From the UHGV virus genome UHGV-1820253: a DNA stretch of 10,991 nucleotides. One strand, 5' to 3'. The notes under the pieces are model-generated. The model worked only from the letters and a program-made list of their open reading frames with translations, ran no database searches and was not told the origin of the DNA. Source of the DNA: a virus. The translations under genes were made by a program, and so were the position numbers. This document shows positions 1,894 to 6,440 of this stretch, in pieces; position 1 is the stretch's first letter; every line of letters begins with the position of its first letter.

Positions 1894-2372
1894 TGGTTGC
1901 CTCCTTTGCGAAGCTGCTCCGCACAATGCAGCAGGGCGTCCGTCGCTTCTTTCACCGTAACGATGTCGCCATCGTCCAGCCCGGCAACCGTCGCGTCCTT
2001 AACGAACACCGAGCAAAGGTCATTAAACGCCTGCGCACGTACTTCAGCCAGGAGAGCGTCGGTGACCGGAGTTTCAGGAATCCGTCTCCTCATCCGTTCT
2101 ATTGCATGATTGAACCCGAAATCTTCAGCGAGAGATACGTCATCCATATTGTCATTGTCATCTTCAATATCCCGTGATTCTGGAATTGCAGACTTTATTC
2201 CCGCATTCTCCGCTGCCAGCGCATTAGCACGCACCAATTGCACTTCCAGTTGCGTTGCCAAATCGCTGATCAGCTTTGCCACACTGCGCATATCAACGGC
2301 ACCACATTCAGCTTTCAGTTCCGAAGCCATCTCATGCCCGGCGGAAACTAACCCTTTGATATTACTTTCCAT
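1890..2372 (-). CDS. Hypothetical acidic protein (160 aa)
   Basis: ATG at 2372-2370 with GAGGG RBS 5 nt upstream; stop overlaps the GTG start of the downstream gene; acidic (DIEDDNDNMDD); no recognisable motif. Confidence 0.55.
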   Translation of the reverse strand: MESNIKGLVSAGHEMASELKAECGAVDMRSVAKLISDLATQLEVQLVRANALAAENAGIKSAIPESRDIEDDNDNMDDVSLAEDFGFNHAIERMRRRIPETPVTDALLAEVRAQAFNDLCSVFVKDATVAGLDDGDIVTVKEATDALLHCAEQLRKGGNQ

Positions 2373-2433
2373 CTTTACCCTCGCTTATCCACATAACTTA
2401 TTGATTACATTGATAACTAAAAAGATCGTCGAT

Positions 2434-2781
2434 TCAGAACTCTTCGATGTTCCAGCCTCCACCTGCTTTCTTTGGTTTAACCGTTACCCCGATGATTCGG
2501 AACGGATACTGATCTGCGGCTACTTTGGTTTTCACCCTGGCGTCGTCGGTCCAGAATCCCCCTTTCACTTCGTACAGTTCCATCTCTCCGGTGGCGAGCA
2601 TCACAGCGAAATCGGGCGTATAGAACGTGTTGTCAGCTAACCGCAGCTTAATACCCTCGAATCGATACCAGGCGATTTCCCCTGCACGTTTACGCTGCTC
2701 AAGGTGCTGGCAATACGCAGATTCTGTTTTGTTCATCTGGCCTGTTTTGAGTCGACCAAGAGCCTGTATCTGTTTTCTCAT
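2434..2781 (-). CDS. Phage protein of unknown function (115 aa), recalls the DUF1064 family (possible nuclease-like fold)
   Basis: ATG at 2781-2779 with AGGT RBS. Motif YCQHLEQRKRAGEIAWYRFEGIKLRL...YTPDFAV...ELYEVKGG matches my memory of DUF1064 phage proteins. An operator-like palindrome overlaps its RBS. Confidence 0.55.
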   Translation of the reverse strand: MRKQIQALGRLKTGQMNKTESAYCQHLEQRKRAGEIAWYRFEGIKLRLADNTFYTPDFAVMLATGEMELYEVKGGFWTDDARVKTKVAADQYPFRIIGVTVKPKKAGGGWNIEEF

Positions 2782-2783
2782 GA

Positions 2784-2868
2784 TTTACCTCTAAGGTAAT
2801 TAAAAACCACATAAGACACGAAATCAATAGATTTTAGAATATTTTATTACCCAACAGGTAATTATCAA
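2784..2868 (-). promoter_or_regulatory. Putative internal promoter with two operator palindromes upstream of the nin-position cluster
   Basis: Minus strand reads TTGATA (-35, plus coords 2863-2868), 16-nt spacer, TAAAAT (-10, 2841-2846). The spacer is the perfect palindrome ATTACCcaacaGGTAAT (2846-2862). A second site, TTTACCtctaaGGTAAT (2784-2800), overlaps the RBS of the 2434..2781 gene. Confidence 0.45.
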
Positions 2869-2898
2869 GACGTAAAAAAATGCGCTATCGCGCTGGTA

Positions 2899-3699
2899 TT
2901 ACTTGATAAATCCTGCCGCCTTTCCCCGCCTGTATTCCTCCATCAGCCACTGCGCCGGTGTTATTCCCCCAAGGGTGGCGGCGTTAGGCATGCACCCGAA
3001 ACTTCGCCCTGGTGGATGGTAAACGTCTCTCCCTGTGTCCGGAGGTGTACTCATGGGCTCTCGCTTTGCCTGTATGCTGATCACCGGATCGGGTATCTGC
3101 TGTCCGGAAGCTACCTTTTTCGCCCAATCATCGAGCAGCCTGCGCGCGTGTTTCTCAACCTCAATCTCGCTAAGCTGGCGCTGATACATTGCACGGCGGG
3201 TATCACATACGACCCAGTACATAACCGGATGTCGCCACGGGAATCTTTCGGGACCACCAGGATATAAACTTTTTTCCTTGCTGTACCGGTGAAACTCCGC
3301 CATCACATCGTCAATGGTGACGCCAAGAACCATCTTGCTGTCTTTACACCACTTGATGAATTGCCCTGGCGACGGCCAGAACGGAGACTCACTGGCGCGG
3401 GCGTGGCGCATACCAGCAGAAACCTGTTCACGGGTTCGGATCCCCCCTTCGGCAAACGCAGCAATCCACTGCTGTTTTGCAGCAACTTCCTGCTCTGGCG
3501 TCTTCAGGTTGGTTACCACTGCCGCCGGAAACAGTTGTTTCAGCTGTTTGAAAAGGGCATCAACAAGCCTCTCTGCTGACATGTTCACCACGTTGTCATT
3601 GTTGGTGTACTGATGCTCATAACCTGACATGCGAGAAAGGGCTTCTCCGTCACGGTTTTGTATCGCGGTAAAAACGTTGTTCACAAGAAATCCTCCCAT
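2899..3699 (-). CDS. Lambda P-like replication protein (DnaB helicase loader)
   Basis: Residues AAVVTNLKTPEQEVAAKQQWIAAFAEGGIRTREQVSAGMRHARASESPFWPSPGQFIKWCKD align closely with lambda P (…RQWVLAFRENGITTMEQVNAGMRVARRQNRPFLPSPGQFVAWCRE, recalled from memory). Sits directly downstream of the O-like gene. Start may be ATG 3699 or GTG 3684, the latter overlapping the O-like stop (GTGA). Confidence 0.85.
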   Translation of the reverse strand: MGGFLVNNVFTAIQNRDGEALSRMSGYEHQYTNNDNVVNMSAERLVDALFKQLKQLFPAAVVTNLKTPEQEVAAKQQWIAAFAEGGIRTREQVSAGMRHARASESPFWPSPGQFIKWCKDSKMVLGVTIDDVMAEFHRYSKEKSLYPGGPERFPWRHPVMYWVVCDTRRAMYQRQLSEIEVEKHARRLLDDWAKKVASGQQIPDPVISIQAKREPMSTPPDTGRDVYHPPGRSFGCMPNAATLGGITPAQWLMEEYRRGKAAGFIK

Positions 3700-4496
3700 G
3701 CTTCAGGGCTGTTCCAGTGCGGAACGTTGTTATCAGGTAATGTTGATTGCTTCTGTCTGCTAATCTGCAGCCGCCTTGCCAGCTTCTGCTCCCACTGTGC
3801 CTGATGGTATGCCTTACCCTCAGCCATCCAGTAAATTCTGAACTCTGCAAGTTCCTGTGCCGTTGGCAGACTGTCCAGGTAGATCCCCTGCAATGAGCTT
3901 TTCCGAAGAAAGTCATCTGATGGCTGCCATTGTTCATGCATGACAAATTTGCCTAATTGCCCTGGCCCACCAGGAGGAACAAAGTTATTCATCACGGCGT
4001 TGTTTGCGCCGGGGTCATGATGCACAGAATCCCCGTTTTTTGTCCTGCTCTCCCTCTCTTGGTTAAATGACTGGTTATATGACTGGTTCTGGATCCCGTT
4101 TTTGGGATCATTCAACATCCCGTTTTTGGGATCATTCAACATCCCGTTTTTGGGTATATTCCCGTTTTCGGTAACATTACCGTTTTCTGGTTCATTGCCC
4201 CCCTCTCGGTTGCCTTTAATGTTCCCGTTTTTGGTTATATTAAGAGAGAAAACCCGCACTCTTTTTGTCGCTCCCTTTCTCTCTCCGGTATCTGAAATAA
4301 GCCCCATTTTCATGAGCGATATAAGCCCGGCCTGCACGGTTTTTTTATTCAGGCAAGTGTCTTTAACGAGGCGTTCTATGCTGGGGTAGCAGAGGTTATA
4401 TTCATCGGCTCTGTCAGCCATCGAGAGCAGTATGAGCTTTAATGATGAGCTACCTGGATCTGTCTCCCAGGCCCAATCTGTTGCATGTCTGCTCAT
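3681..4496 (-). CDS. Replication initiator (lambda O analog): N-terminal winged-helix DNA-binding domain, Asn/Gly/Pro-rich linker encoded by iterons, C-terminal domain
   Basis: ATG at 4496-4494 with GGAG RBS 8 nt upstream; N-terminal HTH-like region (LKLILLSMADRADEYNLCYPSIERLVKDTCLNKKTVQAGLISLMKMGLI); central repeats NGNIKGNREGGNEPENGNVTENGNIPKNGMLNDPKNGMLNDPKNG coincide with DNA direct repeats; immediately upstream of the P-like gene. Confidence 0.8.
   Translation of the reverse strand: MSRHATDWAWETDPGSSSLKLILLSMADRADEYNLCYPSIERLVKDTCLNKKTVQAGLISLMKMGLISDTGERKGATKRVRVFSLNITKNGNIKGNREGGNEPENGNVTENGNIPKNGMLNDPKNGMLNDPKNGIQNQSYNQSFNQERESRTKNGDSVHHDPGANNAVMNNFVPPGGPGQLGKFVMHEQWQPSDDFLRKSSLQGIYLDSLPTAQELAEFRIYWMAEGKAYHQAQWEQKLARRLQISRQKQSTLPDNNVPHWNSPEAWEDFL
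4093..4241. repeat. Iteron array (putative phage replication origin) inside the O-like gene: six direct repeats of about 18-20 bp, core CCCGTTTTTGG..ATT
   Basis: Copies at 4093-4112 and 4117-4136 (identical, atcccgtttttgggatcatt), 4141-4160, 4159-4178, 4179-4196 and 4222-4241 (degenerate). Spacing of 24, 24, 18 and 19 bp. Lambda ori is likewise embedded in O. Confidence 0.7.
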
Positions 4497-4511
4497 GATT
4501 AATCTCCGCTA

Positions 4512-4712
4512 TCAGCTTGAATGTTGTGGGGAGGAATTAATCATGATCTGCTTAATCTCAGCCCTGATGCGACGGTTTGATTCCATGGTGCACTCAACAC
4601 AGTGTCCGTTGTAAACCCAACGTTCACTGTCATGTCCGTGCTTACATGGTTTTCCGGTGTAGTAGCGTTTAAGTCCGCGCTTTGCGGCATCAATACGTGT
4701 AATGATTTCCAT
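4512..4712 (-). CDS. Small Cys/His-rich protein in the cII position (66 aa from ATG 4712; possible zinc ribbon)
   Basis: The track ORF starts at a TTG (4775). In-frame ATGs lie at 4748 (no RBS) and 4712 (AGGG about 6 nt upstream). Protein MEIITRIDAAKRGLKRYYTGKPCKHGHDSERWVYNGHCVECTMESNRR.... Lies between the Cro-like and O-like genes. Start uncertain. Confidence 0.5.
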   Translation of the reverse strand: MEIITRIDAAKRGLKRYYTGKPCKHGHDSERWVYNGHCVECTMESNRRIRAEIKQIMINSSPQHSS

Positions 4713-4818
4713 GGTAAGCCCTGTTATTAGTATTGGGATTACGGTCATTTTGTGCTGACACAAAAAAAAGATCAACCAGATTTGGTTTTTTATTACCTTT
4801 GAGGTGCGAATAGATATG

Positions 4819-4840
4819 AAAAGACCGCCGGGTGGCGGTC
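4819..4840 (-). terminator. Candidate intrinsic terminator or attenuator between the Cro-like and cII-position genes
   Basis: On the minus strand a 7-bp GC-rich stem (4840-4834 paired with 4829-4823) is followed by TTTT (4822-4819). The U-tract is short, so termination is probably partial. Confidence 0.4.
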
Positions 4841-4862
4841 TACAGAGGGTTGTGGCTGGATA

Positions 4863-5093
4863 TCATGAGTAGAAGAAGTATGCCAGTTCTGCTTTTGAGC
4901 GCAGCCATTGTCTTGTTTTACAGGCTTTAAAAAGCCCATTCATCAATACTTTACCTGGCATTTTGCGCTTACCTGTTAAGTGAGTCTGGATATAGTGACT
5001 CGTCGTTCCGGCTTCCTGTGCGAAGGCTTCACGCTCATCCGGAGTAAGTGCAAGCCAGTGCTTTTTGAAATCGAAATGTCCGTTATCGCTCAT
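4863..5093 (-). CDS. Cro-like small HTH DNA-binding protein (76 aa)
   Basis: ATG at 5093-5091; divergent from the repressor candidate across an operator-bearing intergenic region; first gene of the minus-strand replication operon; HTH-like segment AFAQEAGTTSHYIQTHLTG. Family assignment is tentative. Confidence 0.6.
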   Translation of the reverse strand: MSDNGHFDFKKHWLALTPDEREAFAQEAGTTSHYIQTHLTGKRKMPGKVLMNGLFKACKTRQWLRSKAELAYFFYS

Positions 5094-5117
5094 AGCTATT
5101 GCCTGATATTTATTTCA

Positions 5118-5146
5118 GATAATAAATATTCACCCATAAGGTAACA
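5118..5146 (-). promoter_or_regulatory. Putative PR-like promoter for the Cro-like/replication operon
   Basis: Minus strand TTGTTA (-35, 5146-5141), 17 nt, TATTAT (-10, 5123-5118); an operator half-site pair sits in the spacer. Confidence 0.35.
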
Positions 5147-5193
5147 AAAATCAAGGATAGTTACCTATGGGGTGCATTTACCTGTTGGGTAAT
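5128..5193. promoter_or_regulatory. OR-like operator cluster: three 17-bp sites matching WTTACC-N5-GGTAAW
   Basis: TTCACCcataaGGTAAC (5128-5144), TTTACCtatggGGTGCA (5160-5176, degenerate right half), TTTACCtgttgGGTAAT (5177-5193). They lie between the divergent Cro-like and repressor genes. Confidence 0.5.
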
Positions 5194-5247
5194 ATTGCTT
5201 TAAATTGAATCATCTACTGATTCATATACGAGGCGATTTTCCAGAAA

Positions 5248-5832
5248 ATGAAAAGTATCCAGGACGTCCGCAGGCAAAATCTCAACGACTTGATCGACCG
5301 TGAATTCAATGGTGTTCAGACGCGGATGGCAGAAAAACTTGGAACTCAGGCAAATCTGGTAAACCGCTGGGCTCTTGGCAAGAAGGTTATCGGCGACCAG
5401 GTTGCGCGAAAAATTGAAGCTGCCGCCAATAAACCCCGTAACTGGCTTGATATCGATCGCTCGCTTTCTCAGGAAGGTTTTCAGCCTGTCGGCCCAAGCG
5501 ACATTGGTCAGCTGGCGGCTCACAACCTGGAACGCTGGATGAGCGAAAGCCGCGACCTTTCAACACAGGGAAAACTTCACCGCGCATCCGGCGTCGCCCA
5601 GGTGACAATCAGCCGCCTGTTAAACAATGAGGTCAGCGTTTCCATTTCCACCCTGGAGAATGTTGCATCCGCATTCGGGCGTCACGGCTATGAATTACTG
5701 ATTCACCCGCACGACCCTGCGACCATCAACTATGACCGCTCGCGCTACGCATTGTTACCCGAAACCGAGAAAGCAAAGATCGAAAGTTACATTGAATTTG
5801 TCATCAACCAGAACGAAAAAAACAAACAATAA
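5248..5832 (+). CDS. Tandem-HTH (two XRE-like domains) transcriptional regulator; candidate prophage repressor (CI analog)
   Basis: ATG 5248; two HTH-like segments (QTRMAEKLGTQANLVNRWALGKKV and LHRASGVAQVTISRLLNNEVSVSISTLENVASAF); flanked by operator clusters on both sides; followed by a strong intrinsic terminator; no GDSM-type S24 peptidase motif seen. Confidence 0.7.
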   Translation: MKSIQDVRRQNLNDLIDREFNGVQTRMAEKLGTQANLVNRWALGKKVIGDQVARKIEAAANKPRNWLDIDRSLSQEGFQPVGPSDIGQLAAHNLERWMSESRDLSTQGKLHRASGVAQVTISRLLNNEVSVSISTLENVASAFGRHGYELLIHPHDPATINYDRSRYALLPETEKAKIESYIEFVINQNEKNKQ

Positions 5833-5852
5833 AATCATATTTTTCAGTAAGT

Positions 5853-5876
5853 AAGCCGCCTTCTGGCGGCTTTTTT
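5853..5876 (+). terminator. Rho-independent terminator downstream of the repressor gene
   Basis: Stem aaGCCGCC (5853-5860) paired with GGCGGCtt (5865-5872), loop ttct, T6 run at 5871-5876, 21 nt after the TAA stop. Confidence 0.8.
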
Positions 5877-5888
5877 ATTGTCTACACA

Positions 5889-5967
5889 ATTACCTTAAGG
5901 GTAATTTTTTTAACTCATATCTATTGACACCAAACCAAATACGCATAATCATTACCTCAACGGTAAC
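5889..5967 (+). promoter_or_regulatory. OL/PL-like region: two operator palindromes flanking a promoter for the plus-strand recombination operon
   Basis: Perfect palindrome ATTACCttaagGGTAAT (5889-5905) and ATTACCtcaacGGTAAC (5951-5967). Perfect -35 hexamer TTGACA at 5924-5929. The nearest good -10 (CATAAT, 5944-5949) is only 14 nt away, so exact promoter elements are uncertain. Confidence 0.5.
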
Positions 5968-5985
5968 AGACCGAGGTAACAAGTT

Positions 5986-6138
5986 ATGCAGTGGAAAATC
6001 ATCAACGGTTGGTACTGCGTTACTGCATGCGGATTCATGAGCTGGAAGTTCCGCACCTTACAGGAAGGCATTAAGTGGGCTTTCGTCAGCAAAGAAGCTC
6101 GCGATGTGGCCAACGATAACGAGATATGGGAGGGCTGA
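5986..6138 (+). CDS. Small ORF (50 aa), first gene after the PL-like promoter
   Basis: ATG 5986 with GAGGT 9 nt upstream; MQWKIINGWYCVTACGFMSWKFRTLQEGIKWAFVSKEARDVANDNEIWEG; stop 2 nt before the next start. Below the ORF-track length cutoff. Confidence 0.35.
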   Translation: MQWKIINGWYCVTACGFMSWKFRTLQEGIKWAFVSKEARDVANDNEIWEG

Positions 6139-6140
6139 TA

Positions 6141-6440
6141 ATGAACGTTAATCAGCAGAAAAATCTTCAAAAAATCATGCTGGCATTCGACAAGGACTAC
6201 CGCCTGTCAGAACAGCTATATGACCGACAAGTCGAACTGATTGAGAGTATCCGGCTTCATCAACTGGCCTCAACTTTTGACGTTGTAACAGGCAAAGGCG
6301 TTCGTCAGGAAGTGCTGGAGGCCGCTAAAGACAGCCCTGAGTTCGAAGAACTAATGGATGCCTACCGGCGAGAGGCAATGGCAATTATCGCCCGCTGGGA
6401 TCTGGCGGATCAGCTTGATGGACAGAAGGACGCGGCATGA
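6141..6440 (+). CDS. Hypothetical protein (99 aa) translationally coupled to the exonuclease
   Basis: ATG 6141 with GGGAGGG 7 nt upstream (preferred over the track start at 6126); TGA overlaps the ATG of the exonuclease (ATGA at 6437-6440). Confidence 0.6.
   Translation: MNVNQQKNLQKIMLAFDKDYRLSEQLYDRQVELIESIRLHQLASTFDVVTGKGVRQEVLEAAKDSPEFEELMDAYRREAMAIIARWDLADQLDGQKDAA

Follow-up and report, generated by a model that had tools for sequence, protein, structure and literature searches.

In phage lambda, the repressor recognises three adjacent operators at two places only; the nin region and the late genes have no operator ahead of them, and transcription gets there through N and Q antitermination. 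Palindromes repeated before early units or a replication gene, away from the immunity region, occur as the inverted repeats of the phiC31 repressor and the CB sites of N15-type phages; the proteins and sequences of both are unrelated to the Rep system considered here. In cluster A mycobacteriophages (L5, Bxb1 and TipsytheTRex), repressor sites spread over the genome beyond the early promoters silence the prophage; these stoperators are asymmetric, bound by a monomer, set in one orientation and act on elongating polymerase (PMC9283540). Closest to the present case are the annotated repressor-binding sites of epsilon15 (NC_004775.2) and the Rep-Ant switch of SPC32H. Here we describe an intergenic element at positions 2785-2893 of the virus genome UHGV-1820253, a stretch of 10,991 nucleotides (the window), in which two copies of the palindrome TTACC-N5-GGTAA lie between a lambda-P-like replication gene and the gene cluster downstream of it. 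Epsilon15 and SPC32H share with the window the same 17-bp repeat, ATTACC-N5-GGTAAT, and a homologous repressor. In epsilon15 the repeat stands at the same position, between the last replication gene and a resolvase gene, and its copies spread in the same way to the terminase, portal and tailspike regions. The flanking genes of epsilon15 differ, with another replication initiator upstream and RuvC instead of DUF1064 downstream, and its record, in which the annotation is apparently computational, marks only the upstream site of the pair and no promoter. Uetakevirus phages (phiV10, TL-2011b, ZX5 and others) match the window at 95-99% identity, which identifies it, at the sequence level, as a Uetakevirus (phiV10/epsilon15-type) prophage of E. 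coli.

In Rep, the N-terminal domain binds DNA, the middle domain mediates dimerization and the C-terminal domain tetramerization; the DNA-bound form is a tetramer in which subunits of different dimers read one palindrome, and the antirepressor disassembles this tetramer (PMC9638917; PMC9986798). In the SPC32H tetramer, the two dimerization-domain pairs lie ~100 angstroms apart and face opposite directions (PMC9638917; PMC9986798). The tetramerization domain is of a kind linked to DNA looping, and crystal contacts suggest that octamers form (PMC9986798). The repressor of the window matches SPC32H Rep (PDB 5D50) over its full length (E = 4e-42), with strong conservation of the N-terminal DNA-binding part, including NLVNRW, and phiV10 and ZX5 encode a repressor of identical sequence. 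When the ZX5 protein was overexpressed, endolysin transcripts fell by 99.99% (PMC9782041), a drop that fits genome-wide repression, albeit indirectly; the promoters given for ZX5 in that study are predictions (PMC9782041). Pfam found only helix-turn-helix matches in the repressor and no self-cleaving peptidase domain. Induction must therefore use the antirepressor described for SPC32H and ZX5, which removes Rep (PMC9638917). In this Rep differs from the lambda repressor. The antirepressor gene lies outside this window.

We propose, with a probability of roughly 65%, that 2785-2893 is a self-contained promoter cassette which is controlled by Rep and heads a separate transcription unit, one Rep tetramer bridging both operators and thereby shutting two candidate promoters, P1 and P2. 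The elements concerned are the following.

5248-5832, plus strand: prophage repressor (Rep), the presumed operator binder, with two helix-turn-helix regions.
2899-3699, minus strand: lambda-P-like replication gene (Pfam Phage_lambda_P, E = 1.5e-56), the last gene of the preceding unit.
2874-2893, minus strand: small candidate intrinsic terminator after the P gene, a GCGC-GATA-GCGC stem-loop (2893-2882) followed by T7 (2880-2874).
2862-2873, minus strand: hypervariable flank between the T-run and the upstream operator, holding the P1 -35.
2868-2863, minus strand: P1 -35 hexamer, TTGATA, inside the hypervariable flank.
2847-2861, no strand: upstream operator (O-up), TTACC-TGTTG-GGTAA, an exact motif match.
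2841-2846, minus strand: P1 -10 hexamer, TAAAAT, with an expected start at ~2834.
2827-2822, minus strand: P2 -35 hexamer, TTGATT, within the conserved CTATTGATT (2822-2830).
2805-2815, minus strand: CTTATGTGGTT, one occurrence of a further regulatory motif, (CA)TATGTGGTT.
2799-2804, minus strand: P2 -10-like hexamer, TTTAAT, with an expected start at ~2792; its last T is also base 1 of the downstream operator.
2785-2799, no strand: downstream operator (O-down), TTACC-TTAGA-GGTAA, an exact motif match.
2434-2781, minus strand: DUF1064 gene of Holliday-junction-resolvase type, the first of the controlled cluster (Pfam DUF1064, E = 1.2e-5; PHROG 190 'Holliday junction resolvase', E = 3e-43).

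In the lysogen, Rep (5248-5832) would occupy both palindromes. The two operators are 62 bp apart, ~5.9 helical turns, and therefore lie on the same DNA face; since the Rep tetramer has two DNA-binding ends, we infer that one tetramer may hold both sites, which would loop out the 47 A/T-rich bp between them. P2 would be shut because its -10 and start lie under O-down, and the strain-specific P1 because O-up occupies its spacer, while bound Rep would also block read-through past the weak terminator behind the P gene. Once the antirepressor dismantles Rep, the unit would fire from its own promoter or promoters; it begins with the resolvase-type gene, continues with accessory genes and ends at a small regulator gene shortly ahead of the terminase genes.

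The original prediction had placed two copies of the immunity-region palindrome between the P-like gene and the cluster, one filling the spacer of TTGATA-16-TAAAAT and the other overlapping the ribosome-binding site of the next gene, and the sequence is as described. Both sites are exact copies. If up to one mismatch is allowed, the window contains 6 TTACC-N5-GGTAA sites, whereas 200 shuffles of the window that preserved its dinucleotides gave 0.13 on average and never more than 1. Read along the minus strand, the cassette runs TTGATA (2868-2863), A, TTACCTGTTGGGTAA (2861-2847), TAAAAT (2846-2841), 41 nt, TTACCTTAGAGGTAA (2799-2785), ATC and the start codon ATG (2781-2779). O-up has perfect 6-bp arms, ATTACC/GGTAAT in its extended form (2846-2862), around a non-symmetric 5-nt centre, and matches the operator at 5178-5192 at every one of 17 nt; within O-down, GAGG (2791-2788) is the Shine-Dalgarno sequence of the 2434-2781 gene. 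The nearest repressor/cro operator is ~2.27 kb away, in agreement with the earlier figure. These matches support the assignment of 2785-2799 and 2847-2861 as putative operators of the same kind as those in the immunity region.

Conservation was assessed in 79 closely related E. coli prophages with a coding DNA identity of about 96-99%. All 20 half-site positions of the two operators were invariant (nucleotide diversity, pi, of 0.000), whereas pi was 0.058 in the 47 nt between the operators and 0.04-0.06 at the third codon positions of the flanking genes. In the non-contacted parts it was higher: 0.46 in the N5 of O-up, where 29 different pentamers occur, 0.24 in the N5 of O-down and 0.25 in the 11-nt flank between the terminator T-run and O-up. 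Scanning the collection for the right half of O-up and the left half of O-down, with the other two halves left free, yielded at least 120 loci and 97 unique cassettes of metagenomic or prophage origin, and in these the free halves read TTACC in 97/97 and GGTAA in 96/97. The start-to-start distance from O-up to O-down was 62 bp in all relatives. Checked across related prophages, as had been suggested, the pair is kept ahead of the homologous gene in phages of E. coli, Enterobacter, Salmonella and Klebsiella (phiV10, BUCT554, SPN1S and epsilon15, and BUCT711, respectively), with identity to the window Rep of 75% in BUCT554, 42% in SPN1S and epsilon15 and 45% in BUCT711, and an overall span of 42-78%. 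Invariant contacts amid free or hypervariable non-contacts are the pattern of a protein-binding site, and selection on the half-sites is very strong.

The genes on either side of the cassette are exchanged. Upstream, four kinds of replication gene are found (lambda-P-like, SPN1S-type initiator, epsilon15 gp42-type and a Klebsiella type), which are unrelated or only distantly related; downstream stands one of two kinds of resolvase, DUF1064 or RuvC, and 7 of the 8 combinations occur (loci L088-L207). The cassette thus lies exactly where replication modules and resolvase genes swap, and might be kept merely as a patch of homology for module recombination, its palindromes having no regulatory role at this place. 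Homology of that kind would preserve the whole stretch, however, and what is seen instead is invariance of the half-sites next to the most variable positions of all, the N5 and the flank, which is the signature of protein contact. We regard such a relic as highly improbable.

The plan of the cassette was compared with that of the leftward promoter, for which the following features are needed.

5890-5966, plus strand: leftward promoter cassette, with an operator at 5890-5904, TTGACA at 5924-5929, AATCAT at 5947-5952 and an operator at 5952-5966.
5890-5904 and 5952-5966: operators of the leftward promoter.
5130-5144 and 5178-5192: operators between the repressor and cro-like genes, with a weak third at 5161-5175 (two mismatches).
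5147-5119, minus strand: rightward promoter, TTGTTA-17-TATTAT.

The internal cassette consists, in order, of the hairpin with T7, the variable flank, O-up, 19 nt, TTGATT, 17 nt, TTTAAT fused to O-down, ATC and ATG. The leftward promoter shows the same order of terminator, variable flank, operator, 19 nt, -35, 17 nt and a -10 that shares its final T with the second operator as the first base of the latter, and the operators are 62 bp apart in both. The 47-nt stretches of the two agree in register at 22/47 positions (shuffle P = 0.009), and a 9-nt run, ATCTATTGA, is common to the P2 region and the leftward promoter at the same offset. The differences are that the leftward promoter has a near-consensus TTGACA, AATCAT and a 26-nt leader where the internal cassette has TTGATT and TTTAAT, and that only in the internal cassette does the second operator also cover the ribosome-binding site.

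This exact match in spacing bears on another possible role of the pair, that of a distant anchor, 2.3 kb away, for Rep tetramers or octamers on the immunity region, which would stabilise repression of the early promoters in the manner of lambda OL-OR and leave local control secondary or absent. The looping-linked tetramerization domain and the octamers suggested by crystal contacts (PMC9986798) are compatible with such an anchor, as are the single operators of the late region, which have no local partner, and the 2.3-kb distance, which resembles that between lambda OL and OR. A self-sufficient, in-phase pair at exactly the spacing of the leftward pair nevertheless favours local bridging. Moreover, every relative has O-down placed precisely on the -10, the start and the ribosome-binding region, a precision for which a mere anchor has no use, and the left and right operator sets, ~0.75 kb apart, could pair with each other. 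We consider long-range anchoring an unlikely main function.

Taken together, the selection on the half-sites, the terminator and the leftward-like plan leave the predicted direct repression of the downstream cluster well supported on sequence grounds; its transcription independently of the rightward promoter, the other half of the same claim, is only likely. At the cassette, Rep binding, promoter activity and the repression of that activity are putative and read from the sequence.

The scores of the candidate promoters (simple log-odds) were 10.4 for P1 in the window, 9.9 for the leftward and 8.1 for the rightward early promoter, and 5.6 for P2 in the E. coli lineage. P1, TTGATA-16-TAAAAT, matches the consensus at 10 of 12 positions and is the joint best promoter in 2300-6300, with O-up filling its spacer; promoter-like matches in this interval are as frequent as expected by chance, and therefore hexamers alone prove nothing. 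P2, TTGATT-17-TTTAAT, is the conserved one, with TTGATT in 78/79 and TTTAAT in 77/79 relatives and the TTGA of the -35 retained in all genera compared. The Enterobacter, Salmonella and Klebsiella relatives have TAAATT as the P2 -10 and an 18-nt spacer, and P2 is the top-scoring promoter (7.5-8.8) in BUCT554, SPN1S, epsilon15 and BUCT711. Each of P1 and P2 is covered by an operator, and therefore repression by Rep would follow either way.

The candidate terminator ahead of the cassette is weak (-8.4 kcal/mol, z = -1.86), with a 4-bp stem that falls under the 5-pair threshold of the scan. The homologous element is annotated as a terminator in the phiV10 record, and the stem is retained, with a varying loop, in BUCT554, SPN1S, epsilon15 and Klebsiella BUCT711. 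With a leaky terminator, the cassette might hold no promoter at all, and Rep might act on it like a repressor on stoperators, halting read-through from the rightward promoter and so silencing the nuclease and regulator genes in the lysogen. The poor P2 -10 in E. coli, the lack of conservation of P1 and the location of the sites directly past the terminator, on the path of read-through, would agree with this, and repressors that halt elongation at many sites are known (PMC9283540). A roadblock requires no promoter, however, and TTGATT or TTGAxx followed after 17-18 nt by an A/T hexamer is kept over four host genera in the register of the leftward promoter. The rightward promoter is itself repressed in the lysogen, which leaves little read-through to stop; other copies of the operator lie in divergent intergenic regions that must hold promoters; and the sites are symmetric, unlike the orientation-dependent stoperators. 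We judge it improbable that the sites act solely as a block to elongation.

Several points weigh against the interpretation of the element as a Rep-controlled promoter cassette. The -35 of P1, which the original prediction had taken to be the promoter, reads TTGATA in only 13/79 close relatives; 15 different hexamers occur there, among them TCGATA, TCAATA, TCGACA and TGCATG, and TTGATA is absent from phiV10, BUCT554, SPN1S, epsilon15 and Klebsiella BUCT711. With the -10 position reading TAAAAT in 51/79 and CAAAAT in 24/79 relatives, the P1 score ranges from -5.6 to 10.4 (median 4.0), and the claim that P1 in particular is the promoter is not supported; P2 is the conserved candidate. In the E. 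coli lineage, the -10 of P2 lacks the highly conserved A at position 2 and the score is only 5.6, so that P2 may be weak or activator-dependent; a start at ~2792 would give a leader of only ~10 nt. As the terminator is weak, most expression of the cluster may come from transcripts that start at the rightward promoter and read through. Conservation of the half-sites attests to binding of a protein and not to the effect of that binding, and bridging by one tetramer at 62 bp follows from geometry only; the structural mechanism of Rep repression has not been extensively characterised (PMC9986798). Finally, covariation of operator and repressor was looked for, but TTACC-N5-GGTAA accompanied every Rep homologue down to 42% identity (Salmonella, Klebsiella and Enterobacter), and no relative had a deviating operator.

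Over complete genomes, 15 copies of the operator motif were counted in epsilon15 and 14 in phiV10, where shuffled sequences gave 1.2-1.4, and the copies stand mostly at heads of transcription units. Most are at corresponding places: ahead of the terminase, portal cluster, tailspike and lysis genes, near int/attP, at the left and right early promoters and at the internal cassette; a post-cro copy appears in phiV10. The operators of the late-gene regions are single. Several operator regions are divergent intergenic regions that must hold promoters, which supports the view that each operator marks a promoter. In the epsilon15 RefSeq record, 'protein_bind: repressor' is the feature entered for the terminase, portal and tailspike regions, for the left operators and for 35906-35922, the last being the homologue of window 2846-2862. 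The earlier remark that such an arrangement is not found in lambda is true, but it does not make the arrangement novel: direct repression of units beyond the immunity region is usual in this genus, and the epsilon15 record already notes it. The phiV10 and E. coli annotations do not show it, and none of the records examined marks the downstream operator, the pairing or the register of the promoter.

The system resembles lambda OR/OL in having several palindromic operators over early promoters and an oligomeric repressor able to bridge them. It differs in that its operators, either single or in pairs 62 bp apart, precede many transcription units; in place of a lambda-type tripartite operator, with three sites 23-24 bp apart from centre to centre, the cassette has two sites 62 bp apart and 2.3 kb from the repressor gene. 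From stoperators, which are asymmetric, oriented and bound by a monomer, the sites differ in being palindromic and symmetric, in numbering ~14 per genome, in lying at promoter-like intergenic regions and in their tetrameric Rep (PMC9638917).

In the same record set, phiV10 (L086) has adjacent operator copies at 87 and 105 inside its annotated small terminase gene (41-715), and the homologous pair of epsilon15 lies upstream of the terminase gene start (47). The start codon of the phiV10 small terminase is probably annotated too far upstream.

The second motif, (CA)TATGTGGTT, follows the operators at several of these places. With up to one mismatch it is found in epsilon15, phiV10 and Klebsiella BUCT711 almost only at control regions (portal, tailspike, lysis, post-cro and internal cassette), with one further copy at phiV10 24288, against a chance expectation of ~0.6 per genome. 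The positions are 2988, 19940, 24751 and 35953 in epsilon15, 3308, 20921, 24739 and 35116 in phiV10, and ~4272, 16965 and 34570 in L087. At four gene-head regions of the Salmonella, E. coli and Klebsiella phages it stands 31-43 nt past a Rep operator; in three late-gene regions a -10-like hexamer follows 7 nt past its TGGTT, and in the internal cassette it adjoins TTTAAT and O-down. The stretch 2805-2815 is nearly invariant in the 79 relatives. A wider scheme, which we put forward as speculative and think rather doubtful, would have one tetrameric repressor lock ~9 control regions via bridged, in-phase pairs at 62 bp, with rapid diversification of the uncontacted N5 and of the 11-nt flank, which also serves as a -35, and with TATGTGGTT tying the cluster to the late promoters by way of a further factor. 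If this were true, both the tightness of control over the cluster from resolvase to regulator and the promoter that drives it would vary widely between near-identical prophages.

Hypervariability beside invariant half-sites is the only feature that current knowledge leaves unexplained. The O-up centre (2852-2856) and the flank (2862-2872) have ~10 times the diversity of third codon positions, with invariant half-sites between them. The upstream operator of the leftward promoter is likewise hypervariable in its N5 (5895-5899) and flank (5880-5889); the spacers of the repressor/cro operators are not. The variants of the flank combine transitions. This diversity could stem from selection that acts on the affinity of the operator or the strength of P1, from short conversion tracts with other copies of the operator as their source, or from a hotspot of mutation by the terminators. 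Concerted evolution of the leftward and internal cassettes was examined as a source of the spacer diversity; permutation tests were not significant and no within-genome correlation was seen. A hairpin between the variable flank and the operator centre was also considered by inspection and rejected, as it fits a few sequences, for instance the window and L005, and not most.

The prophage region is carried by 530/5426 complete E. coli genomes, or ~1 in 10, and the way it is silenced thus matters for how stable and how inducible the prophage is in many clinical and animal isolates. The comparison suggests that phages of the phiV10/epsilon15 type do not follow the lambda scheme of two repressed promoters plus antitermination, and instead place the repressor before each transcription unit. 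The unit that would be controlled here starts with a DNA-cutting resolvase and ends with a regulator beside the packaging genes. The cassette is a compact candidate for a Rep-controlled promoter module and offers a set of sites for studying a tetrameric repressor on paired operators.

The remaining features of the early-right operon are as follows.

Early-right operon, minus strand: cro-like gene, small gene, DnaT/O-like gene, lambda-P-like gene, cassette, DUF1064 gene, then Ead/Ea22-type and other accessory genes.
4863-5093: cro-like gene, followed by a terminator at 4841-4822.
4793-4807: weak operator-like site, TTACCTTTGAGGTGC, with two mismatches, just downstream of the cro terminator.
3681-4496: DnaT/O-like gene.

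In a 99.8%-identical prophage, the cluster stays on one strand up to a small regulator gene (PHROG 536), and the terminase genes come next. At the position of the DUF1064 gene, epsilon15 has a RuvC-type resolvase instead.

The weak site at 4793 has a counterpart at the same place in phiV10, BUCT554, SPN1S and Klebsiella BUCT711. A palindrome, AACCA-GATT-TGGTT (4774-4787), adjoins TTACCTTTGAGGTGC at a distance of 5 nt, and this arrangement of palindrome and weak operator (4774-4807) is kept in the same four phages; on the minus strand it is preceded by CATATCTATTCGCA, which resembles CATATCTATTGACA of the leftward promoter. The post-cro sites at 4774-4807 may be a third control point, ahead of the replication genes. 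A promoter at the post-cro operator was rejected, as a -35-like TTCGCA is present there but no acceptable -10.

Among other candidates, a plus-strand promoter, AAGACA-16-TAGAAT (2813-2840), was discarded as not conserved in BUCT554 or SPN1S, and CTATTGA/ATCAATAG as an IHF site and TGTGG as a DnaA or CRP site were set aside as weak partial matches, judged by eye only. Known RNA families gave 0 matches in the window. The DnaT/O-like gene contains three tandem 24-nt repeats, ATCCCGTTTTTGGGATCATTCAAC, at 4093-4242, together with related repeats spaced by 18-45 nt, and these resemble origin iterons inside an initiator gene, as in lambda.

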